Shown: piece by piece, positions 11,135 through 52,558 of the stretch
Numbering within the stretch: the stretch's first letter is position 1
How the letters are laid out: every line of letters starts with the position of its first letter
Origin: a virus
Taxonomy: Duplodnaviria; Caudoviricetes
Reading direction: 5' to 3' (one strand)
DNA length: 54,112 bases
IMG/VR virus record: IMGVR_UViG_3300049008_000030
Span: 1 to 54,112 of that record
The notes under the pieces: model-generated
Database searches by the model: none
What the model was told of the DNA's origin: nothing
What the model saw: only the letters and a program-made list of their open reading frames with translations
Program-made: the position numbers and the translations under genes

Positions 11135-11220
11135 AGCCTCTGCTTACCCAGTATGTATTTATTAATTCCTTTTTACTTTCAAAACTTGTATTCTGGATGG
11201 CTTTCTATAAGGGGTCATCC

Positions 11221-11739: not shown

Positions 11740-11745
11740 ACCCTA

Positions 11746-11812
11746 GACTTCAATAATACCTAGCCTCCCCTAGCTCGTAGAGCGTATGGGGTGGTTAGGT
11801 ATTATTGAAGTC
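11746..11812. repeat. 67-nt long imperfect palindrome/hairpin
   Basis: Perfect 17-bp arms GACTTCAATAATACCTA/TAGGTATTATTGAAGTC; apex GCTC-GTA-GAGC. Confidence 0.9.
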
Positions 11813-11917
11813 AACTGATGATAGACGTTAATTAAATAAGATATTTTTAACTCAAGTAGTTAAAATGTAATACATCTACTATAACTTGTAAGCCAATACT
11901 CACATAACGGACACATA

Positions 11918-14900: not shown

Positions 14901-17900
14901 GTGTAGCAGCAAAGGCAGAGAAATTCTCAGAGGTTAAGGCTCTCGACAAGCAGTTCAAAGAGGACTTCCCTACATTCCAACCGCTTAACAATCAAGCATC
15001 AACTGCTTTTTTAAACCTTGCTAATACTGTTGGTAAGGAAGCAGACATGCTAACTAACGCTGTAGCTGAAGCTGAGTTGCATATCAAGTTAGGTACTACA
15101 GAAGCTAAAGCTGTACCTGTTAATCAAGAAGCATCCATAATAACACCCGTAGGTACAGACAATGCAAAACTCACTAGCTCCTTGGATTCAAATACTACTC
15201 AAGCAAGCGGAACTGAACAAGGAAGTGATACCAGTATTGATACTGGATTAGAATCAGCTTTGGTTGTAGATCCAGTAATCAACAACACAACCGCAGAGCA
15301 GGTAACTACTGATACCAGTGGTAATGCTGAAGAAGAATCAATAACTGATCCTGTGGCTAAAGTAGCTGATGCAACTGAAGAGACTACAGCGGATACTACC
15401 TCAGAGGGCCTAGGTAAAGTTAGGTCTATTGCAGAAGCTATAGCCAAATACTACGGGCTACCTGAATTTAGTAACATATTCATAGGTGATCGAACAGCTC
15501 CATCAGGTAACAAATCACGGGCTTGGTACACACACGATACTGCTAATGGACATAGCCTTGGATTGTCTAGTGAGATAGTTAGCGCACTTTCATCACCAGA
15601 TGCAAGGCTACAAGCCGCTGCATTAGAAACTCTTCATCACGAACTAGGTCATCACGCAGCCGTGTCTCTGTACGCTAGTGCCTCACCTGAAGTTAGGGCA
15701 GCCGTAGATGCAGATTATGCTAAGTTTGTTGAGGAGTCCAAGACGCGTACACCAAGAGAGTCTATAGCTGCACGTAATACTATTATACGTGGTCAGGCTG
15801 TACGTGACAGGGTACGTGACCCATCACTGCCTCCTTTGACCAAGGAGCAGAATGACTACATTGCTGGCTATAGCATTGACTTCCAAGAGTGGTTAGCAGA
15901 TGAAGGTGCTAAGTATTTACTTGATCCCACTTCTATCGCTAAACTAAATCCACACACTCAAGGACTAATTCAGAAGATAGCTGCGTACTTACAAGAACTT
16001 ATCGGTAAGTTCTCTAAAGAATACGCTGTAGGTGGTGAGGGTGTAAAAGCTTTCTATAAAGAACTAGAGGATAGGCGTGTACTAGCTCGTATTAAAGAGT
16101 TATCTAAAACAAAGAATCTTACAAAGGCTCCTCCTTTTTTAATCGCTGTAATCGACTACATTGTTACTTCTAACACATCAAAAGATTATTCTTACAAACA
16201 GAACAATCATACCATTTCTGTTTTGGAAGCTTTACCTGATAAAGCCACTAACTTGGGTACACAGTCACTTGATAGCACTAGAAAGTTCTTAACAGGTAAG
16301 AAACTAAGTGACTACTACATAACCAAAGTACTCGATAAAGTTAGTAAGTACAGTGCGTTAATAACGACCCCTAATTTCTTCAGTACACTGAAAGATGCAG
16401 GTGTTAAAGAAGCACTCGGACTAACTCCAGAACAACTTAATGGACTAGCTGCGCTAACTACATTTGTAGATAAATTTGCTGAGACATTCAAAGAAGATAC
16501 CTTTACAGCTGACAGGGAACCGTTTTCAGAAGGTCTTAGCAGAAACCCTGCCTTCTATTTTATGAAGGAAAAGGGTAGAGATCCCTTTGATGAAAACTTT
16601 GTAAGTACTCTAGCAACGGTTGCTTATTCTTGGGTTGTTAATAATGCTAATAACCTTATTCAGCATAATGACGAGGGTATTAATAGGTTACTGGGTAGAG
16701 ACAGTAAGAGTAAAGTATCGGATCAAGAGCGTGAATTGTTAAGTGATAAACAGATCCTTAAGTCTGCTCTGATAACCAGCTTAGGTAAAGAGATTGTAAG
16801 TTCTTTGGGTCTTACCTTTAATACTAAAGCTGATGGTTCTGTTGAATCAAAGATGGTTGAAGCCTTGGGTATCTATGCAGTGAATACCTTGGATCACATG
16901 GGTATACTAAATAAGTCTGTGGCAATACACAAAAATATATTTCTTGCCATGAAGAATGGTAAACCTATTCCTGAAGTTAAAACACCTGCTACAGGTCAGA
17001 ATGCAATCTACTTCACAGGTGTGGCTACTACGGTTACACCTGTTAAGGATAAAAGCTATAGTAATACTGAGCTTAGTGAAAAGGTACAGAAGCTTGTAGA
17101 TGACAACCGTACGAGTAAAGGCTTGCTTACTGAGTTATTTGATTACAAACAACAAAGAGCGTTGCCCTTGCTTGTAGCCCCTACACTTAAGGATGTTCCT
17201 AAGCGTATAAAACGAGGTATTAAAAGGATACCTGAAAGGGTACGTAAAGCCCTGCATAAGTACAACTCTAATGCGTTTACCATTAACATGGGTAATCATA
17301 CTGTTTTGGATTTCTTGGAGCGTGAGCAGCAATTACGCATCTTTAAATACAATGAAAATTTAGAGGGTGTACATGATGTAAACATTAAATCTGTACAAGG
17401 AACCAATAGAACTGCTAAGAATGAGCTTGAAGCTTATCATCAATTAGTTGAACACTTGAAGCTACAGCCAGAGGGTATGTCTACACCCATGTACTTCATG
17501 TCTTCAGTCTGGAAGAGTGGTAGAGCAGGTATGGAAGGTTTGATTAATCCTCAAGCCAGTAAATTCTTTAGGCACATGATAGGTATGGCATCTTGGGAAT
17601 CTACGATTGATAGCCCTGAGAAGCTAGAGCTATTCAAGATAGCCGTTGCTGAAGCACTTGGATCAAAGGTAGATAGACAATCAAATGAAACCTCACTAGA
17701 AGCCTTTGATAGGCTACGCAATCAACCAGAAATACGAGATGGTGTTGCCAGCATTAAGTATCTTAATTCTGGTGTAGAGTTCTCTGCTGAACAGAAGCTT
17801 GCTGCACAGGAAGATATTCTAGCAGCGATTGAGAAAGGTGGTAGCGAGATGTACACGCTGGAAGCTTTAACAGCTCTTGCTACTTATTCAGAGACAGAAT

Positions 17901-20900
17901 CATTTACTACTAGAATGACTAAAGAGGTTGATGGTGTCACTAACGGGGTCATTATTGGTTTGATTCAGTTGGGAGGTTATAGACCTAAAGAGTTATTAGA
18001 GTTCTTAAAAGCTGGTGGTTTATCTGAAGATCCTAATTTTGTCTATGGTGAATGGGTAGCTAAAAACGGTAGTATGGATAACTACCAACGCATAGCAGCT
18101 ACGCTGGTTAAGTATATGACTACCTTTCGTAAAGAGCTGGATGCGAAAGACAAGAGCGGTATTGCTAAGGAGTTTACTACTAAAGAACGTGGGGACAGGG
18201 ATACTTTAGATGGTATAGAGTTCTTCATAGGTGACTTAGGGACTGCGAATGAGCTGACTAAAGCAGCCAGAGACTTAGCTAAAAATCCTGTGATGATTAC
18301 CAACTTCGGTTCAGCTATGAAGAATGTTGTCGAAGGTCTTGGTATGGGTACAGTTGAGAACTTTTATAGTATGCTTGAGGATGCTAGGGATAATCAAGTA
18401 GCTCTTGATAAAATATCAAAACAACTAAACAAAATTCTTAAGCTTGAAATACCACATAAAATCTTAAAGGCTTCGTATCTTCTTGATGTAGAGGATACTA
18501 ACGAAAATGAGGCTCTTAAGTTTAAACTTAGTAAAAACGAAACAGAAAAGTTCCAGAAGCTTGTAGCTACTTCTATTGGTTCAGGTATGAGCCATAGTAT
18601 TACAGAACATTTCCAACCATTCATTGATAAGAGAAAAGGATTAAACAATGCCATGACCTTGGTTCATGCTGCATTTATGATTAAGTACGATGCTGCGTAT
18701 AAAGCAGCTAGAGATCTTAAGGGATCTAATCTATCCAAAGAAGAAGTGAATGCTTTGGTTAAAACATTAGAACCCTCTATGGCTTCCTTTGATCATGCTA
18801 TGTCTGATGGAGAAATGGACACTGAACTGCTTGTAGCTTCTAATGAGAGTAAGACAGTTCTTATACCAGACCCAAAAAGACCGGGGGAATTTATCCCTGA
18901 TCCAGCATACACTGTGCAAGTAAACGCTAAGAAGAATCTACCACATGGGCCTAAGAGTGTTACTGCTCATGGTTCAGTAAGCTACTTTGGTTTCCCTGGC
19001 GTGGGTTCTGTTATCAAAGCTATCCATAGTTCTGATGGTGCTGTGCAATATAAACTGATGGAAACGTCTTCGGTATTGAATGTCCATGACGCTGATGTAT
19101 CAGGTATAGATGGTGCTATGGTTATGGCACAACGTCAGAACCTAGCCTTCAAAGAAATGAATGAAGATTACTCTATGCGAGCTTCTATACAGAAGTCATT
19201 GCTTAGAGCTATGAAAGAGCTTACCCCTGCTGAAGTAAAGCAGGTTGAGGCTTTACTACAGATAACTAATGATAAAGCTGAGGGGTTTCTTGGACATGAC
19301 TTTGTTAGGGCAGAAGGTGAAGGTAAGAGTAGAAAGACTGTAGCTAAGTACAAGACTATCGATGCGTTTGTTACTGAGTTTACCGACACAACCAAGATAG
19401 ACTTAGCAGCTAAGAAAGCATTGCTGGCTAGTATTAAGACTTGGGTACAGTACAATTTAAATCATGGAGGATATGTAGTCGATGAAGATTCCGAAGCTTT
19501 TTTTGCAACATTAGAAGAGATGGAAAGTTCCTTAGAACAGGAAGATGCAGCTATCAATGCTATGATGAAAGAAGAAATTGCTCAGATGAAGAAGGCAGAA
19601 AGGAATCGTATTAGCGGTAAAATTAAATCTTCTGCTACAGAAGATATAGATATAGCTAACTTTGTTGCTGATTCCTTGCCTATCACTATATCTGCTTCAA
19701 CAGTGAACTCAATCTTTGATGAGTTGGGTAAGCTTGATAATGTAACAGATCCTACAAGCCATACAGAGAATCTAAGAACTGTCTTGAATCAGTCTATTAG
19801 ACAAGTACTGAATCCAATGGAGTTACTGGTTCGTAAGCTAGGTCAGACTAATAGCGGTGTACTGTCGAAAGGTAAGATTTACCTTAATCTTGGTAACGCT
19901 GCTAGGTTACATACTACTGATCAGTCTGCTCAAGAGGTCTATGTCCATGAGCTTGTTCATGCGGTAACTGCGGCTGCACTCGCATCAAACTACTGGTTAC
20001 GTAAACAAGCCAGAAGCTTGTATGAGAAAGTACAAGACCAAATTACTCCAGAGAGTTTCTTGGATTATGATGGGCAAGGTAATATCATTGTTCCTGCGGG
20101 TAGTACAGAGGAGCAGACTATAGCCAAGGCTAAAGCTGTCTATGATCATATCTTTGATAACAACGATATTGCTAAGCTTAGTTATACGAACCCGATCACT
20201 AATGAAATAGTGCCAATTCAGTACAGCAATGGCTTACTTGAGTTTGTAGCGATGGGTACTACCAATGCTAAGTTCATTAAGATATTGGCAGGCATTAATA
20301 CCAATAAGTCTAAACGTGATCCACTAACCTATGCAGATAGAGTGTATAACGTATTCATCGGCGCAATTAATTCTGTGCTAAGTTTGATTAACAAAACCAA
20401 AGATCCAGCAGCGAATGTTGCTTTGATGAAACTGATGCACAAGTTGGCTAATGCCAACCAAGTTAAATCCAATATCATCATGCGTAAGTTTGAAGAGAAT
20501 GGTCACTTGGAAGATATTGTAAACTCTAAGCTGTATAAGGCATTGGCTTATTCTGCTTTAACCAGTAGTCAACTACTCAAGGCTAGAAAGAATAAAACAC
20601 TCTCTGCTGTGGGTAATATGATTGGTTTGAGTCAGGATACTAGCTTTGAAGCCTATAAGAAGGTAGCCGGTAAGTTAGCTCGTAGACATGGTAATTCGCA
20701 TAGAACTATTCTGTCTCAGTTAGTGACTGAAGCTGAAGGTATTACTGCTATATCGTCTGCGTACCTGCACATGCTGTCTAAGTCTAATATGCTTATTGAT
20801 CAACTTAGACGTTTGCAAGCACAGAGTGTGACTAATCAAATACTGGGTAGCTTTATTGTAGGTATGCCTTCTAAGAGTGAGGGTATAGCGATTACCAAGG

Positions 20901-23239
20901 TAATGCTTAAGACTGACATGAGTAGCTTGATTGATCATGGATATGCTTGGGATAAGATGTTTGGGCTACTTAAAAGTAAATCCAAGTTGGCTACAGAAAT
21001 TAAATCTGTAGAACAACAGTTGCAAGCAGCAGCACCTAGTAACTTTGACTACTATAAAACACAGGCTGCAACCTTGGGTTACATGATGGTTAATGGTCAA
21101 CCTCTTAAGTGGGGTACAAAGATTAACGCTGTTAACATTGCACACTTAGGTGGTACAGGTAAAACAATAGAGGGTGACTTAGCAGCTATTGAAAAGTATG
21201 TTGATATTCTTGCTTCGCTACATGCTATCAAGTACTCAGATAAAGATCATGTTAAAGACTTTGTAACTGTAGCTGAGAGAGAGTTTGCTAAGGATAAAGA
21301 TAACAATGGGGTGATGTTAAGTTACTTGGTTCATAAAGACTTGAAAGCCAGAGCCTTAGAAGAGTCTTTTGAAGGTCAGAAAGAGCTGATGTTTAAGGGT
21401 TATACCAAGGAGATTTATAATCCAAGAGTTAGTATTGAGGTGGCCCCGGATAATGCGTATCTTGACCTCAAAGTTGATAAGCTTGGTAATGTTATATCAA
21501 CTGAGACAAAAATGAAGGCTAAGGGGTATATCAAAGTGAGGGGTGCTATGTCTAAAGACCCTACTGATCTAAACAAAGAACCTATGAGTTTGTATGTCAA
21601 TAAAGATGGTGATACAGCTACCTTTAATAAGATGGGAGTATCGTTGACTAGCAACAGACGTAAAGGCCATGATCTAGGTGCTGGTTACTCTAGTATGGGT
21701 GTGATTAATCCTGCTTTACTTGGTTCGTGGGATACTGCCCATGCTACGTCAAAAGGACAGAAGATACTTGCTAGTGCTGACTATGCTGATTTATCTAAGA
21801 TAGATAACAATAATCTATTGGTTCCTGTTGAGAACGCACAGCATGAGATTGTGGGTTATCGGTATTTAATGAATGAAGCTACTAAGGATGACCTATTAGA
21901 TAAGGAAAATGGTTTTGCTAAAGTCTTAGGGGCTATGGAAGGGAGTATTGTAGATAAGCGGAACTCTAAGCAGATTAACAACGAAGTCGTTAATTTAATG
22001 CGCGAAGATTTCTTGGCTAACTATGAGAAAGATCCAGACTTGTTTATTAAGTTTAGTTCCCATTCACAAAATGCCGATGATCGTGAGCTGTATGCCATGC
22101 TACCTGCTGATATGCGTAAGGAGATTAAAAGGGTTTGGGGGAGTGATGTGATGTATGTCCGAGCCAATATGTTTAGAGCCATTTTCGGTTTCCGTAAGTT
22201 TACGGTTACTGAAGGCTCTAAGGAGGAGGACGAGGCGAATGCTATGCACGAAGGTGTGCTTACCAATTTTAGGATTGCTCTTAGAGATAAGCTTAGAACG
22301 CCTACAGCTAAGAAAGGTGAGATCGCTTTACAAGAAATTGCAAAGGAAGTGAAGGATGCTATTGTTATTAAGTTGGGTGGTACGTTGTATAACAACATCA
22401 TTAGTAATAACTGGTTGTTATGGGTTAAGGGTGTAGGTCGGTTTTCTATCGTGAAAGATCAAGCGATGTTTCTTGATGCTGCTAGGCAGTACCATAAAGA
22501 TGTAGCCAAGCTGATGGAGCTTGAGAGGTCTGTTAGGATTAACCCTAAGCTACAGAATAGTGCTAATGTGAAGGCTAAGATCAATAGTCTTAAAGATCAC
22601 ATGGCTCATAATCCTATTTCCTTCCTGATGGACTCTGGTGTGTCTCAGACAATCATTGAGGATGTTGATACGGATGAGAGCCAGTACACTTACAAGGGCA
22701 TGCTTGAAGAGAAGTTAGCTCCATTAGTTGCAAGAGTACCTAAACCACTAAAGACGCTGGCAAGTATTGCGTACATGAACCATGATACTAAGCTGTATAA
22801 ATTCATGCGTGAAGCCACACAGTTAAGTGATTTGGTAGCTAGGGCTACACTGCATAAGCATAATATAGAAAAGAAGGGTATGAGTGCTGTAGACTCTATT
22901 AATGATATTAAAGATACCTTTATTGACTATGCTGCACCGACCAGTAAGCAGATACAGTATCTTAATGATACTAACTTCTTGTCGTTCACTAAGTTCTTTA
23001 TACGTTCACAGAAGATCATCTATCAGACCTATGCTCATGCACCTGCAAGAGCATTAAGTCTGCTTGGTTTTGAAGATGTGTTTGGTGAGTTATCTACTAT
23101 CAATGATTCAAATATCATTAATACTAGCCTGTTGGGTAGGATCAATAACCCAGTAGCTATGGCAACTGATTTAGTGGTTCCACATACCTTTGGGTTAATT
23201 CCTACAGGTACAGGAGGGGGTTCTTATATACCAGAGTAA
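11918..23239 (+). CDS. Virion-encapsidated RNA polymerase (N4 gp50-like vRNAP)
   Basis: 3773 aa, no Cys found on reading; GR..M...NPQASK..R, motif A EVDGVTNG, motif B RDLAKNPVMITNFG, motif C NVHDA. Confidence 0.96.
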   Translation: MTPESLQPTQGFANTSSGSFVNVSSDGFANTSSDGLLPPDSNTSLLENKMRGVATASDAKKHFLDPSSSIDPTLTSLKYQTVVDGDTLKNKLTGEKSRITQGEEDTGFRFNPWEVKHGDKFDATAAARILDQRKAIAKINGLPLDYIPDSAVYGRGENAKRVFGDLLKETGDFNLVKTGKIDIHDRPVTEIFAPGSDQSLVAPMNTEELNADYNSRHNITGRGINVLKKAAEREEATKYSVSDANRETLLGGAVNLVAGGAVAASDQIYNMAKSPFELLGQFTEHGITNKQRELSAALTTKQEAAGKTGTTYTPTAEEQAILETPAQTFMRENLRPVLNGERNISAKDLMAGLNTVDPLQQSIHEKLQETAFVKENITDKLTAMQEGNRRLYNSAGSDELYKESKGLYNDSVEPTFVEGVQKFKKGHVVDGSLQMVDAIANAGAGILRVGANNKQAVAEEAGKQIINSFAASKALLATALGMYTNTDSEITDNFVKENGRYPEGREVDNIHAASFLSAMADSYTDKWLTSKPGIALAIPREFITEAGQNFLEQDAAKQGASKIDRGEVFASGTIGALAAGGHSVITSPEAAIIEAAQGVGNIAGGAISGAKKAAPTIQWAAQALGDAGREYGNVLPDGLAEGMSDATKAGLAKLTGALTGMPTDSLGSGLKAAGSLAAHATKEGAKAVGGAVGDYLDSAFPISSQAIKDFKASNLVPDKISNAVDAAKQEVTDAVDEVNSSTATPMPMADVLKQASETKDPRQTLKTMLQTGNSPAADTTPEDRKAFVDLATEHNTALVTTALDMGKQDKSGMSEAERQTVVDKQGELLAEFRKNKETIDGIKAFNPEADTTDTDLSIVAKATTPELANHPDTLQAIDRTIRSMRQPNKVSIEQAESLQAKATLTPEQTSVVSAFIATQTAKNELKSMSKVGDEVIYGQKAENGKKGFLGMVEHQAIIADALDQNNIPAAQSALDGFKSFAASQAKKAASLTAMSVAAKAEKFSEVKALDKQFKEDFPTFQPLNNQASTAFLNLANTVGKEADMLTNAVAEAELHIKLGTTEAKAVPVNQEASIITPVGTDNAKLTSSLDSNTTQASGTEQGSDTSIDTGLESALVVDPVINNTTAEQVTTDTSGNAEEESITDPVAKVADATEETTADTTSEGLGKVRSIAEAIAKYYGLPEFSNIFIGDRTAPSGNKSRAWYTHDTANGHSLGLSSEIVSALSSPDARLQAAALETLHHELGHHAAVSLYASASPEVRAAVDADYAKFVEESKTRTPRESIAARNTIIRGQAVRDRVRDPSLPPLTKEQNDYIAGYSIDFQEWLADEGAKYLLDPTSIAKLNPHTQGLIQKIAAYLQELIGKFSKEYAVGGEGVKAFYKELEDRRVLARIKELSKTKNLTKAPPFLIAVIDYIVTSNTSKDYSYKQNNHTISVLEALPDKATNLGTQSLDSTRKFLTGKKLSDYYITKVLDKVSKYSALITTPNFFSTLKDAGVKEALGLTPEQLNGLAALTTFVDKFAETFKEDTFTADREPFSEGLSRNPAFYFMKEKGRDPFDENFVSTLATVAYSWVVNNANNLIQHNDEGINRLLGRDSKSKVSDQERELLSDKQILKSALITSLGKEIVSSLGLTFNTKADGSVESKMVEALGIYAVNTLDHMGILNKSVAIHKNIFLAMKNGKPIPEVKTPATGQNAIYFTGVATTVTPVKDKSYSNTELSEKVQKLVDDNRTSKGLLTELFDYKQQRALPLLVAPTLKDVPKRIKRGIKRIPERVRKALHKYNSNAFTINMGNHTVLDFLEREQQLRIFKYNENLEGVHDVNIKSVQGTNRTAKNELEAYHQLVEHLKLQPEGMSTPMYFMSSVWKSGRAGMEGLINPQASKFFRHMIGMASWESTIDSPEKLELFKIAVAEALGSKVDRQSNETSLEAFDRLRNQPEIRDGVASIKYLNSGVEFSAEQKLAAQEDILAAIEKGGSEMYTLEALTALATYSETESFTTRMTKEVDGVTNGVIIGLIQLGGYRPKELLEFLKAGGLSEDPNFVYGEWVAKNGSMDNYQRIAATLVKYMTTFRKELDAKDKSGIAKEFTTKERGDRDTLDGIEFFIGDLGTANELTKAARDLAKNPVMITNFGSAMKNVVEGLGMGTVENFYSMLEDARDNQVALDKISKQLNKILKLEIPHKILKASYLLDVEDTNENEALKFKLSKNETEKFQKLVATSIGSGMSHSITEHFQPFIDKRKGLNNAMTLVHAAFMIKYDAAYKAARDLKGSNLSKEEVNALVKTLEPSMASFDHAMSDGEMDTELLVASNESKTVLIPDPKRPGEFIPDPAYTVQVNAKKNLPHGPKSVTAHGSVSYFGFPGVGSVIKAIHSSDGAVQYKLMETSSVLNVHDADVSGIDGAMVMAQRQNLAFKEMNEDYSMRASIQKSLLRAMKELTPAEVKQVEALLQITNDKAEGFLGHDFVRAEGEGKSRKTVAKYKTIDAFVTEFTDTTKIDLAAKKALLASIKTWVQYNLNHGGYVVDEDSEAFFATLEEMESSLEQEDAAINAMMKEEIAQMKKAERNRISGKIKSSATEDIDIANFVADSLPITISASTVNSIFDELGKLDNVTDPTSHTENLRTVLNQSIRQVLNPMELLVRKLGQTNSGVLSKGKIYLNLGNAARLHTTDQSAQEVYVHELVHAVTAAALASNYWLRKQARSLYEKVQDQITPESFLDYDGQGNIIVPAGSTEEQTIAKAKAVYDHIFDNNDIAKLSYTNPITNEIVPIQYSNGLLEFVAMGTTNAKFIKILAGINTNKSKRDPLTYADRVYNVFIGAINSVLSLINKTKDPAANVALMKLMHKLANANQVKSNIIMRKFEENGHLEDIVNSKLYKALAYSALTSSQLLKARKNKTLSAVGNMIGLSQDTSFEAYKKVAGKLARRHGNSHRTILSQLVTEAEGITAISSAYLHMLSKSNMLIDQLRRLQAQSVTNQILGSFIVGMPSKSEGIAITKVMLKTDMSSLIDHGYAWDKMFGLLKSKSKLATEIKSVEQQLQAAAPSNFDYYKTQAATLGYMMVNGQPLKWGTKINAVNIAHLGGTGKTIEGDLAAIEKYVDILASLHAIKYSDKDHVKDFVTVAEREFAKDKDNNGVMLSYLVHKDLKARALEESFEGQKELMFKGYTKEIYNPRVSIEVAPDNAYLDLKVDKLGNVISTETKMKAKGYIKVRGAMSKDPTDLNKEPMSLYVNKDGDTATFNKMGVSLTSNRRKGHDLGAGYSSMGVINPALLGSWDTAHATSKGQKILASADYADLSKIDNNNLLVPVENAQHEIVGYRYLMNEATKDDLLDKENGFAKVLGAMEGSIVDKRNSKQINNEVVNLMREDFLANYEKDPDLFIKFSSHSQNADDRELYAMLPADMRKEIKRVWGSDVMYVRANMFRAIFGFRKFTVTEGSKEEDEANAMHEGVLTNFRIALRDKLRTPTAKKGEIALQEIAKEVKDAIVIKLGGTLYNNIISNNWLLWVKGVGRFSIVKDQAMFLDAARQYHKDVAKLMELERSVRINPKLQNSANVKAKINSLKDHMAHNPISFLMDSGVSQTIIEDVDTDESQYTYKGMLEEKLAPLVARVPKPLKTLASIAYMNHDTKLYKFMREATQLSDLVARATLHKHNIEKKGMSAVDSINDIKDTFIDYAAPTSKQIQYLNDTNFLSFTKFFIRSQKIIYQTYAHAPARALSLLGFEDVFGELSTINDSNIINTSLLGRINNPVAMATDLVVPHTFGLIPTGTGGGSYIPE

Positions 23240-34688: not shown

Positions 34689-34970
34689 CTATTGTCCCCG
34701 TATAAAATTAATGAGTGGTCTAGGAAATACTTTAGTAATCTTTATATTAGCTGCATGTAGAGCTATTTTTAGCCCTTCTATCTCATGCTCTAATTCGTGT
34801 AAATGTTTTAGTAGCGCTTGGTTCCTTTCGTCTTTAGCGTGATTGTTAAGCGTTAATATATTCTTTGACCTGGTGGTATAATCAAGTTCATGCTCTACCA
34901 GTTTCAGTGCTTTAGCCAATTCATTGCATCGTATCTTATGGCGATAGATGAATGCGGTTATCCTATTCAT
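34689..34970 (-). CDS. Hypothetical coiled-coil protein
   Basis: 93 aa, GAGGAG RBS, overlaps polymerase stop. Confidence 0.55.
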   Translation of the reverse strand: MNRITAFIYRHKIRCNELAKALKLVEHELDYTTRSKNILTLNNHAKDERNQALLKHLHELEHEIEGLKIALHAANIKITKVFPRPLINFIRGQ

Positions 34971-36096
34971 TTATTAACTCCTCTAAATATTTTTTATGGG
35001 CTGCTCTACCGATTGCAGTTATTTCTGCTTGGGTAGAGCGGTTAGGTAGTTTTGCTGATACTTCCCATGAGGGGTAGAAGATCTCTGCGGTAGCACTGAT
35101 CTTTACGATGTCATGTCGTATCTCTGGTAAGCCTGTCCAAGACATGCACTCAATAAGATTATTGTTGAACCATTCAATACATTCAGCGTTGTCTGCTACT
35201 GAGAAGTACTGACTGTCATGGATCGCACAGATAGGTAGAATGTCTAGCGCATAGGGAGAACCCCATATACGCCTTTGAAATGCTACTGCTGCTCTGCTAT
35301 TAAGCATCCCATAACTTTGTCCTAAAGCATTACCTGCTGTCCTAGATTCAGCTTTAGCTTCATAGGGTACTGAGCTACTGGTTAAGATTGATTGAGCCAA
35401 GATAGGTGTTCGTAGTCTTAGTCCGAAGGCTAGTTTTACGTAGCCGTTCTTAGTAGCTTCGATTAATTTGGTTTGTACCCACTCATCGGATACCTTATAA
35501 AGCTCGTGGTAGTTTCTTTCTATTTCTAGTGCTTCTAGTTTTTTGAAACCAACATTAGCAATTAAGCCATGATAGGTCCCCCCGTAGGTTAATAAAAAAG
35601 TTGGTGCTTTTGATGCTTGTCTTAGCTTAGGAAATAAATCTGCTATTGAGTTTATGCTTTCAACGGTATCTATGATTCCAGCTAGTTGATCCCTAAAGTA
35701 AGCAAACGCTCTTAGGCTGTGACCATCATAGCCATCGGTATACACCTTTAGTTTGTTAGGGTCTTTCGTAGTAAGAGCAGATATCTTATCTTCCAAGGAA
35801 TCAAAATCTGCTCCTATCATTACTCTACCTTTGGGGGACTTGAAGCATGACTTTATTAACTTGCCATAGGTAGATCCACTAGGTAAGTTAGTTAAATTGG
35901 GATTAGAGCTAGATTGCCTACCCGATTTCGTTCCTGTTATATTGAAGTTACCATGAAGATAGTAATTACCATCTTCCTTTAGTACGCTATTCTCTTTGAG
36001 GGCTTTAATGAATGTACCGAGTATCTTAGCTGCCTCTGCATATTTAATGAGTGCTTTAAGTACTCTAGCTGCTTGTATGGCTTCATCTCTGGTCAT
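34963..36096 (-). CDS. DNA polymerase family A, C-terminal catalytic part
   Basis: GT.SGR.SSSNPNL.N.P, motif A GADFDSLE, motif B RQASKAPTFLLTYGG, motif C IHDSQY; own GAGGA RBS. Confidence 0.93.
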   Translation of the reverse strand: MTRDEAIQAARVLKALIKYAEAAKILGTFIKALKENSVLKEDGNYYLHGNFNITGTKSGRQSSSNPNLTNLPSGSTYGKLIKSCFKSPKGRVMIGADFDSLEDKISALTTKDPNKLKVYTDGYDGHSLRAFAYFRDQLAGIIDTVESINSIADLFPKLRQASKAPTFLLTYGGTYHGLIANVGFKKLEALEIERNYHELYKVSDEWVQTKLIEATKNGYVKLAFGLRLRTPILAQSILTSSSVPYEAKAESRTAGNALGQSYGMLNSRAAVAFQRRIWGSPYALDILPICAIHDSQYFSVADNAECIEWFNNNLIECMSWTGLPEIRHDIVKISATAEIFYPSWEVSAKLPNRSTQAEITAIGRAAHKKYLEELINE

Positions 36097-36326: not shown

Positions 36327-37880
36327 TTAAACTAGATTCTCTTCAGAAATATTAAATTCCGACATTAGATACACTAGATGCTTTTTTAGTGTTTTACCTC
36401 CGGTAGCTGGCGCACCTGAGTCAGTTGAATCAATGACAGGTAGTTTCCATTGGTCATGCAAGAGTCCTTGCAAGTTTGGATTACTGTTTGGGTTAAATAC
36501 TATATCGGCAAAGTCTTCTAGTGGCTTTACCTTTACTTTTAAGAGTAGATTTTTCTTAATCATCTCCTCCTTTTGTAATTGTAGGGAATAGTCTTGGATT
36601 ACTTTACTCTGCGATAGTACAGCTAGATGCTCTGCTTGGATCTGGGTTAGTTGTTGTTCTGCTTTCAGAACTTGAGCCATGTCGATAGGCATACCACAAA
36701 GTTCTTCCTGCATAATCACTTTAACGCCGGGTAGCATTAGTTGGTTGTATATTCTGTCCTGTTGATCGTTGATCATTACGGGTAGGTTCTTATTGAATAC
36801 GAACCATGTTGCAAGACAATCCAGTAGGTTATATCTCAAGAGTTTATCTTTAGGTATTCTACGAATATCCTTAATCTCTTCTTGAGCATAGTTACCTGTG
36901 AACTCTTGGCTATTCTCTTTTAAGCCTAGCACGTTACCTGCACAACTATTGGTAGCCAGATAGGTAATGATCTGGGTGCAATGCACATCTTTAGTCATTA
37001 CTCTTATGCCTTCAATCATGCCTGCTGTATCCAGCATGCTCTCCATGAATAACTCATAGGTAAGTATCTTGGCATCATAAGTAATTTTGTGATAGATGAG
37101 AGTACCTTCATAGCTTAGAAAGAACTTTTTCAGTAAATCTTTTACTTTTTGGTTATCTTGTTGATGACCGTACCAACCATCTACAGGTGGGTGCTTATTC
37201 TCTGTGTAGTCAACACCGAAGGCAATTCCTTCATGCTGATTCCAAGCAAAGGCTATAGAGCCTATACCTGCCTTATTAAAATCCAAGCTGAAAGCTTCGA
37301 TGTCACAAGTGAGGGCAGGGTATTGGTGCAGACTATCTAACGCTAAACGTATATCGTCCAATGTATCAGGGTAATTTTCATACTTGATAATGTTAGATCC
37401 TGGTTCAGAGTAAGTTCCTGTCCTCTCTGATCCAAGTACATCAATAGCGGTAGTGATGCTACTGAGCTTGGTTGGATCGTAATAGAGTGCTTGGTAGTTC
37501 AGGGTGATGGTTGCAGACATACCTTCAAAGCCTTTGTAGGTACATTCTGTTAAGTAACCAAACATCGGTGCTGCTTTCTTTGAGCCAGTCAGTACCTTGA
37601 AGTACTCAGCATCAGCTACCAGTAAATATTTTACACCTAGCTGTTGTGTAGCCTTAGCTAATGAGTCTAGGTAAGCTTTCGCTTGTTTAACTGTTACCTT
37701 GGCTTTACCACCGTAATCTAAAGAGAAGGCAATAATATCTGTTTCTAAATAGCCTTTGTCTATTAGTGGTTCTACATAATATTGCCATAGTTTTTCTTTG
37801 TTTAGTGCTGATGCCTTAATTAGTACAGCTATTTTATAGCTATACTGTTGAGGTGGTTGATGAAACACTAGATGGAACAT
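36327..37880 (-). CDS. DNA polymerase family A, N-terminal part (3'-5' exonuclease plus start of thumb)
   Basis: ExoI CDIEAFS, ExoII YHKITYD, ExoIII YNLLD; FNPNS...L..LL and T.SG.P.TG thumb motifs. Confidence 0.92.
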   Translation of the reverse strand: MFHLVFHQPPQQYSYKIAVLIKASALNKEKLWQYYVEPLIDKGYLETDIIAFSLDYGGKAKVTVKQAKAYLDSLAKATQQLGVKYLLVADAEYFKVLTGSKKAAPMFGYLTECTYKGFEGMSATITLNYQALYYDPTKLSSITTAIDVLGSERTGTYSEPGSNIIKYENYPDTLDDIRLALDSLHQYPALTCDIEAFSLDFNKAGIGSIAFAWNQHEGIAFGVDYTENKHPPVDGWYGHQQDNQKVKDLLKKFFLSYEGTLIYHKITYDAKILTYELFMESMLDTAGMIEGIRVMTKDVHCTQIITYLATNSCAGNVLGLKENSQEFTGNYAQEEIKDIRRIPKDKLLRYNLLDCLATWFVFNKNLPVMINDQQDRIYNQLMLPGVKVIMQEELCGMPIDMAQVLKAEQQLTQIQAEHLAVLSQSKVIQDYSLQLQKEEMIKKNLLLKVKVKPLEDFADIVFNPNSNPNLQGLLHDQWKLPVIDSTDSGAPATGGKTLKKHLVYLMSEFNISEENLV

Positions 37881-42292: not shown

Positions 42293-42358
42293 ATGGCTAT
42301 GGCTCCTAAAGGCAAAGGCGGTAGTGGTAAAGGTAAGGGCGGCGGTAAAGGTTGTTAA
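42293..42358 (+). CDS. 21-aa Lys/Gly peptide MAMAPKGKGGSGKGKGGGKGC
   Basis: Manual translation; TAAGGA RBS, upstream promoter candidate, downstream terminator. Confidence 0.65.
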   Translation: MAMAPKGKGGSGKGKGGGKGC

Positions 42359-42373
42359 TTAACCTTTAAGTAT

Positions 42374-42402
42374 AAAAAAAGGGAGCATATAGCTCCCTTT
42401 TT
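42374..42402. terminator. Bidirectional intrinsic terminator
   Basis: A7-GGGAGC-ATATA-GCTCCC-T5. Confidence 0.85.
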
Positions 42403-42426
42403 ATTGTTTGGTTAAATTTACTTAGT

Positions 42427-42786
42427 CTAGGGTAATTCAGCGTCAATCATTTTATCAATGAGTAATAAATTTTTAGCGTTTGCGTATTCAACCTCATGTC
42501 GCATAGCTTTAAGTGCAAGTATTTTTGTGGAGAATTGCTTTTTTCCTCCTTGTGATGCTGATGAATTTTTACTGTATATTCCGCTACCGTTTCTGCAATA
42601 GCCCGACCATGATTCACTAACTAGCATTGAATATCTATTAAAACTCCAACCCTGTACTATTTTGTCGTATTCAGTTGGTGGTAGCAAATCAGGTTCAATA
42701 GGGCTTGTCCACCTAAGTGCGGTCAAGGTTTCAGCTTTTAATATAAGCTTATCGAACTCAGCACGTTCTTTTTTAGTCATTGCCAT
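42427..42786 (-). CDS. Hypothetical phage protein
   Basis: 119 aa, AAGGA RBS; ALRWT....PD..PP and FSTK.LALKAMRH motifs. Confidence 0.7.
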   Translation of the reverse strand: MAMTKKERAEFDKLILKAETLTALRWTSPIEPDLLPPTEYDKIVQGWSFNRYSMLVSESWSGYCRNGSGIYSKNSSASQGGKKQFSTKILALKAMRHEVEYANAKNLLLIDKMIDAELP

Positions 42787-42941
42787 TATTTATCCTTATT
42801 CAGTCTTTCATAAATCCAGCGACAATCTTCATGTGAAATACTGAAGCCGTGTTTTTTACATACCTCTATTACTTCTTCAATAAAAGAATCTATTGCAGGT
42901 ACTTCTATATGTTTTTGTTTTTTTCCACTCCAGCGTTTCAT
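42786..42941 (-). CDS. 51-aa hypothetical protein
   Basis: Manual translation MKRWSGKKQKHIEVPAIDSFIEEVIEVCKKHGFSISHED...; ATGA overlap with integrase stop. Confidence 0.55.
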   Translation of the reverse strand: MKRWSGKKQKHIEVPAIDSFIEEVIEVCKKHGFSISHEDCRWIYERLNKDK

Positions 42942-43954
42942 ATATCTATATCCCTTGGGTTTAAGTTTGTGTAACGCTTAAGCGTATTCCAGTTCTCATG
43001 CAATGAGATTTGTTGTACTTCAACTATGCTGAGTTTCTTTTCAAATAGTATTGATACTGCGTGATGCCTTAAGTCATGGAAATGCAAACCAGTAATTCCT
43101 AGCATTTTACAGGATTGAGTAAAGTAAGCTCCCACTGTTTTACTGTTATAGGGGAAGATAAACTCACTTACTCTAGGTTGCCTTAATAGTATTTTGTAAG
43201 CTGTCCTTGGTAGTTTAGACATCTTGGATTTATTCTTAATGCGTGGATCTTTTAAGTTACGAACCAGTATGGTTCTATCTTCATTGTGTAGGTCCTCCCA
43301 GCGTAGTTGTACTATTTCTGATTGTCTTCTAGCAGAATAGATAGCGAACCACATTAAGTGGAGCATAGGGATATTTTGGTACTTATCATGTAAGTATCTG
43401 GATAGTTCCCATATCTCCTTTTTAGTAGGTCTTCGGGATCTGTGTTGTGCTTTAGCAATTAAGCCTTCTGAGTAGAGAATCTCTCTAGCAGTAGCGAATA
43501 TGGTTAAATCGGTATCAAGGTCTATGACACCTTTCATGGTTCGTAGTACTACGCCTAACCAAATGAGATCATTGGTAGCGGTTTGTGGTAAGCACTCTTT
43601 GTTCCTCTCACGAATATGTTGAATTAAGTCTTTATGAGTTAAGGTATGTACATTTAGTTTAGTTATGTCTCTTTTTAAGAGCTTGTTAATATCAAACCTT
43701 TTGCTTCTGCCCGATGGGCTAAAGTCTTTTAAGTATTGTTCTATGACACTACCCAGTGAAAGGTATTCACGTTTTTTATAGACTGTCTGTTCTTGTAGTT
43801 CAGTCTCTCTTCGCATACCCCAGTCTTTTGCTAGTTTTTGCTTATTGAAACTCTTCTTTTCACGATACACAACTGTACCATGTTTGCGTATCTTGATAGA
43901 ACAGTCGTAAACTATCTCACCGTTTGCCTTTATTCTTTTTACTATTGATGCCAT
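42938..43954 (-). CDS. int: Tyrosine integrase, dusA-associated type
   Basis: Catalytic set R (SARRQSEI), K (LKDPR), HxxR (HDLRH), H (SLHENW), Y (LKRYTN); start MASIVKR with GAGGA RBS (track start 43975). Confidence 0.93.
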   Translation of the reverse strand: MASIVKRIKANGEIVYDCSIKIRKHGTVVYREKKSFNKQKLAKDWGMRRETELQEQTVYKKREYLSLGSVIEQYLKDFSPSGRSKRFDINKLLKRDITKLNVHTLTHKDLIQHIRERNKECLPQTATNDLIWLGVVLRTMKGVIDLDTDLTIFATAREILYSEGLIAKAQHRSRRPTKKEIWELSRYLHDKYQNIPMLHLMWFAIYSARRQSEIVQLRWEDLHNEDRTILVRNLKDPRIKNKSKMSKLPRTAYKILLRQPRVSEFIFPYNSKTVGAYFTQSCKMLGITGLHFHDLRHHAVSILFEKKLSIVEVQQISLHENWNTLKRYTNLNPRDIDI

Positions 43955-43967
43955 GTTACTTTCCTCT

Positions 43968-44146
43968 GTCCCCATAAAATATCATGGGGACTCTGTGGGG
44001 ACAAATATAGTATTATTAACCAATAATAACTCCTTGGGAAGCCCCATGAACCATAATAAACCTGCACACCGCTTTAGTGTTGCACCGATGCTGGATTGGA
44101 CTGACAGTCGCTATTCTACTGGGCTGTAGCGTTTCATGGGGACTCT
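43968..44146. mobile_element. Putative attP with arm-type repeats
   Basis: TCATGGGGACTCT at 43982-43994 and 44134-44146; further TGGGGAC-like copies at 43968-43975 (inverted), 43996-44002 and 44041-44048 (inverted); contains dusA fragment. Confidence 0.82.
44046..44129 (+). pseudogene. dusA: Replacement 5' fragment of host tRNA-dihydrouridine synthase A
   Basis: Translates MNHNKPAHRFSVAPMLDWTD then diverges (SRYSTGL*); RFSVAPMLDWTD is the DusA N-terminal signature. Confidence 0.9.
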
Positions 44147-44372
44147 ATGCGCCCACACGCATTTTATCGAGGTAATTTGCTAGGTCGATGACATCAACTA
44201 GCCAAGGTGCTTTGTTACTTTTTACTGCTTTAAATGTTCTAAAGGGAATCAAACCTTTGTTGGCTTGATCCCTTGTGAAGTCCTCTGACCATCCGAAGTA
44301 TTTTGTTGTTACTTTCTTTAGTTCTATAAATCTTGCACTAAATTCAATCTTCAGGTCTTCTGCTGTTGTCAT
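44145..44372 (-). CDS. PrtN/pyocin-activator family protein, probable excisionase
   Basis: I.L..V...YFG, G.IPF..F....S.KAPWLV...DLA.YLD; abuts attP. Confidence 0.8.
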   Translation of the reverse strand: MTTAEDLKIEFSARFIELKKVTTKYFGWSEDFTRDQANKGLIPFRTFKAVKSNKAPWLVDVIDLANYLDKMRVGA

Positions 44373-44556
44373 TGTTTTTTGGCTCCGGCATATATAAGCT
44401 CATAGCTTCTTTTACTATGTGTGCCTCATTTTCATAGATGATATAGTTCCCTTCTTCATCCAAATACATTAGTAACAGTATATGGAATAGAAGATCATCT
44501 TTCTGTTTGAGTAGCTTTATATATTTTTTTCTTGAAAAGACGGCTTTACCTAGCAT
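44344..44556 (-). CDS. Hypothetical protein
   Basis: 70 aa, AGGAG RBS. Confidence 0.55.
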   Translation of the reverse strand: MLGKAVFSRKKYIKLLKQKDDLLFHILLLMYLDEEGNYIIYENEAHIVKEAMSLYMPEPKNNDNSRRPED

Positions 44557-49577: not shown

Positions 49578-49851
49578 TTAACTAAGCGCGTACTCTGAGT
49601 TCAGAATCTCTGCTGATAGGTTATGTGAAAGTTTTGTGTACTTCACTGGCTCACCTATTAACTGCCCTAATATGTCCCCTAAGATGTCTTTAGAAGCTAT
49701 GTCAGCTAGTATTAATACGTAGTTCTCCCTTACCTTTTGGATATGGTTAGGTGATGCGAAGTACGCATCGTGGATAGTTACCATTTCAAAGCCTTGAGCA
49801 TGCGCCATACGTACCATTTCACGTACAACATAGGCATCTACTGAATGTACT
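49578..49851 (-). CDS. RNA polymerase II subunit 2 (N4 gp16-like), exon 2
   Basis: Frame reads VHSVDAYVVREM...VTIHDAY (motif C)...SEYALS. Confidence 0.9.
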
Positions 49852-50914
49852 CAAATGTTAAATCAAGACGTTACTCTTGACCCTTAAATATATTATAAAT
49901 AGCAGCATTTCCTACATTAAACTTAGCTGAGATCTCTACACCGTTAAGACCTTCAGCATGAAGCTGAAGTATCTCTTCTACATCGGTATGAGATAACCTT
50001 ATGTTAGGATGTTTACCGTAATTGTCTCTGTTGGTTGCGAAACCTACGTTAACTTTTGCAGAAACAAACTGACACGTTGTTGGGCTGTATATGTGAGGAT
50101 GTATATTAAGTTGTTCAGATAGAATATCTTTATCTATATGTAGTCCCTTAACCCATCCATTAGCTAGACCCCACTCAATAAATGCTTGAGGGTTATCACG
50201 CCATTCTTCACATACAGTCACACCCATCCCCATATACCATTGATACCCTTGACCATTTTCGTTGTAACACCTATCCATCATGCCTCTGTAGGCTTTATAT
50301 AATGGGTGAGTATTACTTGCTTTGCGGTAGCCGTGCTTTGTTTTTCTAGCAAGTTCTACACAACCACATGAAGGTGTCTCAGGATCTAGGGATTGGTACT
50401 TCTTAGTTTGATGTTTGATCGTATTGGCTCTAGCAGTATGTGGTTTTCCACAGTCGCACTGATATACCCAAAACGCATTTCCTATAGCATCTTTATGTAT
50501 GAACTCTTTGGCTACTAATGACCCAAACCGCTCGTTGGTTATATCTACTATAGGTCTTTTTGCTCTGGTTTTTGCTATTTTCATTGGTTTTCCTTATTAA
50601 TCAATACAATGTAATTATACACTGAGTTGATGTGTTAGGAAAGCTACTATTTATATTTAAGTCTCTGATTTTCATCAGAGTATCGGACTATATCTTCACC
50701 CTCTTTTCAGTAGGGGCAAGGCACTTCGGATCTCACTTGAGTATCCTACGAACATTATTGACCAGCAATACTGGCTTCTCGTTCTAGTCTCTGAACCTTC
50801 AAGAATATTACTACTCTTGCTTGGCTGCTGATTAGCATAGGAGTTACCCCTAAGCCTTCCAGCAATTCACCTTGTTTTCTTCTCACCCTCTCGGATGCGT
50901 GACGCAGTTACGCT
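49852..50914 (-). ncRNA. Group I intron (IA2-like), 1063 nt
   Basis: P AAUUGCUGGAA, Q AAUCAGCAG, R GUUCAGAGACUA, S AAGAUAUAGUC; P1 ACGU/GCGU with U-G; terminal G at 49852. Confidence 0.9.
49871..50584 (-). CDS. Intron-encoded Cys-rich HNH-like homing endonuclease
   Basis: FG.L, W...CDCG, SCGC, M..RCYN, G.TVC.EW, IDKD, YSP.TC.FV...N; C-terminal HTH. Confidence 0.85.
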   Translation of the reverse strand: MKIAKTRAKRPIVDITNERFGSLVAKEFIHKDAIGNAFWVYQCDCGKPHTARANTIKHQTKKYQSLDPETPSCGCVELARKTKHGYRKASNTHPLYKAYRGMMDRCYNENGQGYQWYMGMGVTVCEEWRDNPQAFIEWGLANGWVKGLHIDKDILSEQLNIHPHIYSPTTCQFVSAKVNVGFATNRDNYGKHPNIRLSHTDVEEILQLHAEGLNGVEISAKFNVGNAAIYNIFKGQE

Positions 50915-51630
50915 ACGTTTGCTATAAGTGGTATGTTGTATGTACTTGGCTCATTTATCTCTGTTACGTAGGTGAAGGTAGCCTTGTTTAGCTCGGCTAC
51001 CTCAATCTTCTTATACACTTCTACCTTTACAGGTACATACGCTGTATGCCCATCAGGCAATGTCCAAACATGAACAAAAGTATCTGGGTCCCAACATTTC
51101 AGTATGTCAGACATCATCTCCATAGGTCCCGGACACTCTTTCTCTAGCGTTGCATAGAAGGCAGCAAGCTCTGTAGTATCCTCACCGAAGACATTCTTAG
51201 GCTCTTGTTTAGACCCATAGAACACTGTCATTACAGGTGGTTTTATACCATCTCTGGTATATCCACCTAGGCTCAATAGATTCATGGTATCAGTGACTTT
51301 GTTATAGAAGTCCTCCCGTTTGCCTGTATTTATTAAGTTGGTATTCTTGGCTGTAGTCCTACAACCCGTTAGGCAAGCCATGAGCTGTAGACCTGATTGC
51401 GTGGCATCAAGACCTACCATATAGCCTGTAGCTACGCCCATTTCAGCATCATACTTGGCTCGAATAGCCTTTAGATACAGATAAGGATCATCTGCATCTA
51501 GTGACAATTCTTCAAGGTTTGCTTCATTGTCTTTTACCCACTGGATACGTTCATCCCAGGTTAGCTTGTCTAATCCGTAGCAATTTGCTATGTCGATTAG
51601 TATGTATTCATACCCTGTAAATTTCTGCAC
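50915..51630 (-). CDS. RNA polymerase II subunit 2 (N4 gp16-like), exon 1
   Basis: F..YEY.LIDIAN.YGLDK..W.ERI.W, motif A LDATQSGLQ, motif B R...K...MT.FYGS, W.LPDG; GTG start. Confidence 0.92.
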
Positions 51631-51631
51631 G

Positions 51632-52558
51632 TTATACTCCTTGGATTATTTCTTGTTTAGCAAGATTGATTAGACTCTTCTTATAGTCAGTTGATTGGAT
51701 GTTGATGTGGTATCCAACTGAGTAGACTCTACCTCGCTTGTCATACTTCCAAGTGATGTAGAACTCGTTACCCTTGCCTAACATCATGTTGTAGATTTCT
51801 ACTGAAGTTTCTACCATTATAGTATGGTTAACTTTTCTTTGCGTTAGAGAGACTTTAGTAAGCCCTCTTTTCTTGGCTTCAGAGAGTTCTTTGTACTCTT
51901 CTTCGTACTCTAAAGCACTAATATCTAAAGATAGTTTTATACTGTTTAAGATGTTTAATACATCTAATGCTAGTGGTTGTTCGTGGTGATTACCTTTACC
52001 TAGAATTACTGAGTCTTTCTTGGTTAAGTAACCTGAAGAGCTGTTACTGGTTATCTTGTTAGGTATTACCACCAATGGTGGTAAGTACTTGGTTTTCTCC
52101 AACTTAATTTGAGTTGTTTTATCTAATGAATAGTTACTACGTATCATTAATGAGCCTGTTTCACTATCACTTGCTGCAATAACCTCGTACAAGTTAGAGA
52201 AGCAGACTACAGCTACCAGCTCTGCTGCTGTCTGTATACCAGCAACGAAGTCTTCATAGGCTAAGAACTTAGCCAAAGGAGACACTACTTGTTGATAGCT
52301 AATGTCATGACTGAACGGTATTACTGATACCAGGATATTGTTAATAATATCTACTGGATCAATGTGCTGTATCTTGGCTATCCTTTCACTCTTTGAGTTC
52401 CAGTATTCACCTTCAAAGTACTCTTCAATGAACCCTACAGCTTTAGCTATGGGGCGTTCTAATCCTGTACGAATATCGGCTAAGATACGTGCATTGTTGT
52501 TGTGCTTACCGTAGGTATCTTCTAAGATTACCTGCTCTAATCTATTTAAGAAATCCAT
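51632..52558 (-). CDS. RNA polymerase II subunit 1 (N4 gp15-like)
   Basis: YLPPLV..P...N..SGYLT, N.H....LD.LN..N, FY....YDKRGRVY..GYH.N.Q. Confidence 0.92.
   Translation of the reverse strand: MDFLNRLEQVILEDTYGKHNNNARILADIRTGLERPIAKAVGFIEEYFEGEYWNSKSERIAKIQHIDPVDIINNILVSVIPFSHDISYQQVVSPLAKFLAYEDFVAGIQTAAELVAVVCFSNLYEVIAASDSETGSLMIRSNYSLDKTTQIKLEKTKYLPPLVVIPNKITSNSSSGYLTKKDSVILGKGNHHEQPLALDVLNILNSIKLSLDISALEYEEEYKELSEAKKRGLTKVSLTQRKVNHTIMVETSVEIYNMMLGKGNEFYITWKYDKRGRVYSVGYHINIQSTDYKKSLINLAKQEIIQGV

Follow-up and report, generated by a model that had tools for sequence, protein, structure and literature searches.

We analysed a linear, metagenome-derived record of the IMG/VR database (IMGVR_UViG_3300049008_000030; 54,112 bp, hereafter the window), with an estimated completeness of 73%, leaving ~27% of the genome missing. 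Its gene content identifies the window as the larger part of an N4-like (Schitoviridae-type) phage genome from an uncultivated lineage. The window carries a recombination module with a tyrosine integrase gene (int), a phage attachment site (attP) and a gene for an excisionase (xis), or recombination directionality factor (RDF). We conclude that an N4-like phage has probably acquired, and maintains, a complete module specific for the bacterial gene dusA, consisting of an RdfN-type excisionase, an attP and a dusA-associated integrase. N4-like phages have long been taken as strictly lytic, because their early transcription needs an RNA polymerase injected from the virion, and to our knowledge the evidence for lysogeny among them has so far been bioinformatic.

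Integrase, attachment site and excisionase

The predicted parts of the module are as follows (aa, amino acids; nt, nucleotides; MAG, metagenome-assembled genome; the contigs LR797314 and L135 are described below).

42938–43954, minus strand: dusA-associated tyrosine integrase (int), 338 aa from the MASI start; PF00589, E=3.2e-20; phrog_1, integrase
43955–44144: attP region, 190 bp, between int and the RDF gene; the order xis–attP–int is also found in LR797314 and L135
43968–44003: P-arm repeat cluster, with GTCCCCAT at 43968–43975 (inverted), ATGGGGAC at 43984–43991 and TGGGGACA at 43996–44003
44046–44129, plus strand: replacement dusA 5' end (dusA'), an ATG and 22 DusA-like codons, then five non-DusA codons and a stop (TAG, 44127–44129)
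44078–44112: predicted common core of attP and the bacterial attachment site (attB), 35 nt; one mismatch to the dusA of an uncultured Methylococcaceae MAG
44134–44146, plus strand: P'-arm copy of the 13-nt arm repeat, conserved in L135
44145–44372, minus strand: PrtN-domain RDF (RdfN-type excisionase), 75 aa; PF11112 (PyocinActivator/PrtN), E=1.8e-13; phrog_1300, excisionase, E=3.3e-18

An earlier note, made from the letters of the window alone, had described int as an intact tyrosine integrase, and the PF00589 match together with a full catalytic set agrees with this. The residues R210, K235, H293, R296, H319 and Y328 were invariant in our alignment (A1), completing the R..K..HxxR..H..Y set. 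A longer open reading frame (ORF), 42938–43975 on the minus strand, extends past the MASI start, and int likely starts at 43954, since its homologues all start at MASI. In tblastn searches, int matched 177 phage records. It was 55% identical to LR797314, an uncultured freshwater phage of 36 kb, and at 97% coverage it was 37.3% identical to mEp460 (E=4e-58) and 36.7% identical to BcepIL02 (E=1e-56), which were both named as dusA-associated integrases by Farrugia 2015 (PMC4482086). By homology, int belongs to this dusA-associated family. Neither int nor the RDF received a specific name from NCBIfam, and at the DNA level the module had no match in the phage collection.

The 75-aa PF11112 ORF lies across attP from int, where a PrtN-like xis had been predicted, and its best phage match was in LR797314 (52%). 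The same domain and position are found in a proven RDF: deletion, complementation and mini-element experiments established that RdfN, a 76-aa PrtN-domain protein, acts as the RDF of dusA elements, in which int and rdfN lie across attP from each other (Durand 2021, PMC8409611). A prtN homologue was present in 60 of 94 dusA islands (Farrugia 2015, PMC4482086).

The spacer between int and the RDF gene, put at ~190 bp in the earlier note, is exactly 190 bp long, and arm repeats do flank the core on both sides. There are exactly two copies of the 13-mer TCATGGGGACTCT in the window (43982 and 44134). Of the six copies of its heart, TGGGGAC, across the 54 kb, four lie within 176 bp (43968–44143); the mean in shuffled sequences was 2.39, and six copies were reached in 3 of 100 shuffles. 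Inverted copies of the arm repeat are also present in attP, and a partial copy at 44042–44049 overlaps the dusA' start codon. CCCCAT/ATGGGG-like motifs were found at the same position in two relatives described below, the int remnant of Candidatus Methylobacter favarea and the IMG/VR contig L138.

The dusA' frame starts at 44046 on the strand opposite to int, from whose start at 43954 it diverges. Its 27-aa peptide matched the DusA of a Methylococcaceae MAG (G275) with 13 of 16 identities (BLASTP, E=3e-9), and in silico the codon phase of 44046–44112 is that of G275 dusA across the 35-nt block. The earlier note had read a DusA-like peptide from this ATG, which stands, but had placed the loss of likeness right after 44107. 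Identity with the best dusA continues past ...GACAG (44107) to 44112, because the G275 DusA reads ...WTDSR. Only a single dusA-like core is present in the window, which argues for an attP and against an element that was inserted into the phage and left two junctions.

Phage backbone and embedding of the module

Hallmark genes of N4-like phages lie on both sides of the module.

11918–23239, plus strand: virion RNA polymerase (vRNAP), 3773 aa; phrog_2206, E=0; at one side of the module
51632–52558, minus strand: N4-like phage RNA polymerase (RNAP) subunit; phrog_2166, 'N4-like RNA polymerase', E=3.1e-74; at the other side

PHROG matches also showed that the window encodes a portal, a major head protein, an N4-type primase, an N4-type single-stranded DNA-binding protein (SSB), a DNA polymerase and a VWA/ATPase pair, and one ORF matched the N4 Gp49 family (PF13876). 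The small RNAP subunits, N4-type SSB, portal and capsid that we used to recognise Schitoviridae were all present (phrog_2166, phrog_743, phrog_1216 and phrog_1357, with PF00940). The N4-like identity proposed earlier was thus confirmed by vRNAP, portal, capsid, SSB and phage RNAP genes. N4-like genomes are ~70–76 kb long with terminal repeats. The capsid protein of the window is at most ~50–62% identical to those of isolated phages, suggesting a divergent uncultivated lineage, and a few short IMG/VR contigs encode capsids 73–90% identical to it.

The module is embedded in this backbone. It is co-oriented with the N4-type genes on both sides, the int stop codon overlaps the start of the next ORF, and strand and AT skew run on continuously from its neighbours. 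The G+C content (GC) of the module is 0.366–0.369, compared with 0.366–0.438 across 1.5-kb bins of the window and 0.395 for the window overall. The ORFs and signals that adjoin the module are the following.

42376–42402: bidirectional terminator-like hairpin ending the int transcription unit
42427–42941, minus strand: two small ORFs (51 aa and 119 aa) directly 3' of int, variable cargo, with an ATGA stop/start overlap with int
44344–44556, minus strand: 70-aa ORF that overlaps the RDF start and travels with the module; conserved in L135

The 119-aa ORF matched phrog_28248. The 70-aa ORF had no Pfam or PHROG match, and an Atlas search with it was uninformative. Between the cargo ORFs and a 76-aa ORF, a 21-codon Gly/Lys-rich ORF on the plus strand precedes a strong bidirectional terminator hairpin (42294–42402).

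A metagenome scan recovered a second copy of the module. The 4-kb contig L135 repeats the 70-aa ORF, xis, attP and int at 87% nucleotide identity, and the shared block extends into a homologue of the 76-aa ORF; L135 is without the window stretch 42415–42935, which holds the two small cargo ORFs. The block ends sharply at ~44536 and ~41971, with different genes beyond. Between the window and L135, 313 of 339 int residues are identical (92%), with a synonymous divergence (dS) of 0.45 and a ratio of nonsynonymous to synonymous divergence (dN/dS) of 0.093; for xis, dN/dS is 0.19. A dS of 0.45 combined with these low ratios indicates long-term purifying selection. The arm motifs are unchanged, and none of the four differences in the dusA' codons for VAPMLDWTD alters the amino acid, as would be predicted for a working attP that rebuilds a working DusA.

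These observations bear on a doubt raised in the earlier note, that of a chimeric assembly. In such a chimera, an N4-like contig would have been misjoined with a fragment of an unrelated temperate phage. The record is metagenome-derived, linear and incomplete, and our search of IMG/VR for close relatives spanning the module gave one match for the VWA gene, at 35%, and none for the ATPase gene, as might be expected of a chimera. However, vRNAP, DNA polymerase and primase lie on one side of the module and the N4-like RNAP on the other, so that two misjoins would be required for a chimera. No break in strand, GC or AT skew is seen across the module, the stop of int overlaps the next start, and the independent contig L135 has the module with its immediate neighbours on both sides. 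Since a second contig carries the same module under selection, it is not an assembly artefact, and we regard a chimera as extremely improbable.

Several backbone genes of the window have unusual structures. The capsid protein (491 aa, 4304–5779) aligned to those of G001 (a Burkholderiaceae MAG) and G002 in two pieces, residues 3–88 and ~178–490, which suggests an extra segment of ~90 aa in the window lineage. A phage RNAP gene is interrupted (49578–51630): a group I intron (RF00028, 74.6 bits) was found at 50663–50922 on the minus strand and an HNH endonuclease ORF at 49871–50584, flanked by an upstream ORF (50908–51630) and a 79-aa ORF (49578–49817) resembling a C-terminal fragment of RNAP. 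One ORF in the batch Pfam scan, which the scan output does not specify, matched PF00940. The DNA polymerase is split into two ORFs (36327–37880 and 34963–36096) that match successive parts of phrog_17 and are separated by a 230-nt gap, in which Rfam detected no intron.

Relatives at dusA and candidate host

Two global scans for the integrase, with one genome per species, both ranked Methylococcaceae first. Candidatus Methylobacter favarea contains a broken int remnant (79% identity over residues 6–117, with a stop codon) that is divergent beside a full dusA, and an uncultured Methylococcaceae MAG contains a full-length int homologue (60%) that is also divergent beside dusA. These two int relatives (L003 and L103) adjoin DusA equivalogs, and all three dusA genes that we examined were DusA equivalogs. 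Insertion of this integrase family at the 5' end of dusA, as described in the earlier note, is supported by the two closest bacterial relatives of int, which sit at real dusA genes.

Among phages, LR797314 has PrtN followed by an attP, which contains a dusA' fragment and has arm repeats of its own, and then by int. Two IMG/VR contigs, L002 (int 63% identical) and L138 (62%), likewise have a divergent dusA' fragment, and L138 also has CCCCAT-type arm motifs.

The block 44078–44112 is shared with G275 dusA at 34 of 35 nt, and identity falls to about one third on both flanks. The predicted crossover lies somewhere inside this block, with no finer placement. The core covers the ..APMLDW.. codons, as in all relatives aligned. 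The att sites of dusA elements are 26–28 bp long with a 21-bp semiconserved consensus (Farrugia 2015, PMC4482086). Among 301 genomes of the order that contains Methylococcaceae, the 26-nt core had a match with three or fewer mismatches in 40, compared with none for a reversed control; one genome matched with one mismatch and six with two. The 25-mer 44088–44112 occurred once in 185,579 species genomes, in the same Methylococcaceae MAG that had the best core match, and an exact 38-mer of the dusA' stretch had no match in the species-genome collection.

We also considered that the integrase serves another use, such as multimer resolution at its own site or integration elsewhere, and that the dusA-like stretch is an inherited relic. 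This is very improbable. The dusA' frame has been kept by synonymous-only change in conserved codons, the core resembles a real dusA at 34 of 35 nt with sharp edges, the two nearest bacterial relatives of int are both at dusA, and the RDF has been retained under selection.

The search of dusA genes that had been proposed as a way to name the host yielded a candidate, the G275 dusA, with its 34 of 35 nt in frame; this gene is a DusA equivalog (NF008774, E=3e-151). The host is probably a methane-oxidising member of the Methylococcaceae, and most likely a bacterium of that family with low GC. The contig of the candidate host (L119, G275:C124) begins 54 nt before the dusA ATG, and three AGTCG(C/T)-type repeats lie in these 54 nt. 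Another dusA element, hidden by the contig break, might itself be the source of the 5' end of G275 dusA. Two weak integrase fragments in the same MAG (33–35%; G275:C106 and C144) do not adjoin its dusA and were set aside. A 37-nt match between window 42366–42402 and G275:C84 was rejected as a CRISPR spacer, because it reflects a terminator hairpin common to both sequences.

A 180-aa membrane protein gene just upstream of vRNAP provides a third, weaker link to a host in this order. Together with its flanks (11161–11965), the gene matched a bacterial-looking contig from a genome of that order at 70% identity over 805 nt, and the region matched 2 of 401 genomes of the order that contains Methylococcaceae, compared with none of 401 in the order of G001 as a control. 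The gene may be a host-derived moron. The bacterial-looking contig, 4 kb in length, carries a ParE/Phd pair and a porin-like protein, and one ORF of the batch scan that included the 180-aa membrane protein region matched a SHOCT domain.

Possible lysogeny, its alternatives and known systems

If the module works as in known dusA elements, the linear genome would circularise and Int would bind the core together with the cluster of ...CCCCAT/ATGGGG... arm sites, after which the core would recombine with its counterpart in the 5' end of dusA in the host. At attR, int and the P arm would lie divergent beside a rebuilt, in-frame dusA with 22 initial codons, and presumably a promoter, of phage origin. 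At attL, the former dusA 5' end would be fused to five phage codons and adjoin the RDF gene. Int may be expressed from its own promoter in the P arm, as in a characterised member of the family, and the RDF gene would be transcribed from the upstream phage genes, which have the same direction. This shared direction would couple excision to the start of the phage transcription programme. The earlier note proposed that the cascade is restarted without an injected vRNAP, which is pure conjecture.

In the characterised elements, insertion at the 5' end of dusA supplies a replacement 5' end (Farrugia 2015, PMC4482086), and integration gives dusA a new promoter and a restored frame (Durand 2021, PMC8409611). 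The swap of the DusA N-terminus and promoter and the separation of int from xis were claimed for the window earlier. The replacement 5' end is in frame with the best candidate host dusA. The swap and the separation are not novel, having been published in these two papers.

The central claim of the earlier note, a phage that lysogenises at dusA, is consistent with the attP, its int and RDF and the in-frame replacement 5' end, but the collections searched yielded neither an attL or attR junction nor an N4-like prophage at dusA. A capsid scan of the species genomes returned two loci only, the Larsenimonas contig and the Burkholderiaceae MAG prophage described below, neither on a contig with a dusA-type integrase, and the capsid gene was found in none of 401 genomes of the order that contains Methylococcaceae (the query was positive in G001 and G002). 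The candidate host MAG is without N4-like genes and without a close integrase. No CI/Cro/S24-type repressor was detected among 50 ORFs searched against Pfam and 25 searched against PHROGs, with ~27% of the genome missing. Promoter-like hexamers precede dusA' (43998–44027) and int (44040–44012), but sigma-70-like sites are not commoner in the region than in shuffled sequences (5 versus 10.6 expected), and the claim of a phage-supplied promoter therefore leans on family precedent. L135, at 4 kb and with a different ribonucleotide reductase class, cannot be shown to be N4-like, and its core variant matched 1 of 401 genomes, at three mismatches, with no near-exact dusA. LR797314, L002 and L138 have no N4-like genes within 10 kb of int. 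All of these results weigh against lysogeny of an N4-like phage at dusA. Since neither an integrated N4-like copy at dusA nor a repressor was found, lysogeny by this phage is what we infer from its module, as are the actual integration, the identity of the host, the promoter and the way in which latency is kept. The module was probably acquired from ordinary temperate phages, given that the closest carriers of int show no N4-like genes near it.

Some of the same results fit a phage that is lytic in practice although its cassette is intact. Such a phage would have taken the module from a co-infecting temperate phage and would integrate rarely and unstably, in a carrier-like way, with no immunity or stable lysogens. 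The absence of repressor-like domains from all ORFs scanned and of N4-like prophages at dusA from all searches would be expected here, as would integrase carriers that are not N4-like; the sharp edges of the L135 block, with other genes beyond, resemble those of a mobile cassette. On the other hand, int and xis have been under long-term purifying selection, and there is conservation of both the arm sites and the reading frame of dusA. The module also has a fully ameliorated GC, and its genes overlap adjacent ones. In addition, 27% of the genome is unseen, and small repressors are often missed by Pfam. We therefore consider the lytic-in-practice phage unlikely, and prefer a maintained, dusA-specific module.

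A bolder version of lysogeny is doubtful, and we would give it little weight. An N4-like prophage at dusA would be silent by default with no dedicated repressor, since its early promoters would be read only by the injected vRNAP and its middle promoters only by the phage RNAP. In this version the RDF gene would lie downstream of the middle-type genes of the phage and would couple excision to reawakening, and the phage would be a lysogen-former of lake methanotrophs with a latency unlike that of lambda.

Other N4-like genomes show that integration is within reach of this group. A ~76-kb N4-like prophage was found in the Burkholderiaceae MAG G001 (G001:C129, ~216–76430; L097 and L098), bounded by an exact 50-bp direct repeat that is the 3' half of tRNA-Cys, with a tyrosine integrase and an excisionase-like ORF at one end and a gene order circularly permuted relative to N4. 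This prophage indicates that N4-like genomes can integrate, in line with the proviruses described by Zheng 2023 (mSystems, PMC10654107). Contig6 of Larsenimonas suaedae (L004, 74,886 bp) has N4-like capsid and RNAP genes and no PF00589 match, and resembles an N4-like genome that is present in unintegrated form within a bacterial assembly. Of five complete related N4-like uncultivated virus genomes that we checked, one has an integrase (L101, G005:C1:48888-52376); it is a different, 379-aa tyrosine integrase, in a complete genome of 75 kb with terminal repeats.

The window thus offers a fully specified and testable case: int, the RDF and an attP of 190 bp, arm sites included, are all defined, and dusA provides a candidate attB of 35 nt. 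Because the mechanism follows what is textbook knowledge for dusA elements, its value is that of a good test case rather than of a new principle. In addition, it suggests that an N4-like phage has Methylococcaceae methanotrophs as hosts, which is of ecological interest for methane-oxidising communities. Literature searches returned no paper in the library covered that links N4-like phages with dusA (Schitoviridae and dusA were mentioned together only in an unrelated context), and for methanotrophs with N4-like phages or Schitoviridae the phage terms were absent among the matches listed.

Among known systems, the dusA elements IMEVchUSA3, Prophage 03 of P. protegens Pf-5 and mEp460 resemble the window in having an integrase of the same family and a ~75-aa PrtN-domain RDF across attP, in an attP with an in-frame replacement dusA 5' end, and in an int that is divergent from dusA once integrated. 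They differ in their carriers, which are P2-like or lambdoid prophages or mobilisable islands, whereas the window is from an N4-like podovirus with a vRNAP. The window int is only ~37% identical to named members of the family, and its recombination is predicted from sequence. The closest integrases (55–63%), in LR797314, L002 and L138, share with the window the layout of PrtN, attP (dusA') and int, the presence of arm repeats and, for LR797314, the RDF, but each arm-repeat sequence is lineage-specific and none has N4-like genes within 10 kb of int. Conversely, the G001:C129 prophage is N4-like, with a capsid 62–65% identical to that of the window and a tyrosine integrase at its end, but this integrase is unrelated and its target is tRNA-Cys instead of dusA.

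Zheng 2023 (mSystems, PMC10654107) described 54 N4-like genomes with lysogeny hallmark genes, freshwater included, and 40 integrated N4-like proviral regions, mostly in Moraxella, and suggested that the integrases were horizontally gained. These genomes resemble the window in combining an N4-like backbone with a lysogeny hallmark gene. In the window the att site, RDF, arm sites and a candidate attB are also defined, and the term dusA is absent from the main text of that paper; being 73% complete, the window contig possibly fell outside its high-quality set. The dusA int/RdfN module, its swap and its int/RDF split were thus known since 2015 and 2021, and integrase-bearing N4-like phages since 2023. 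What is new is the combination of an N4-like phage with a dusA module, not a new kind of system.

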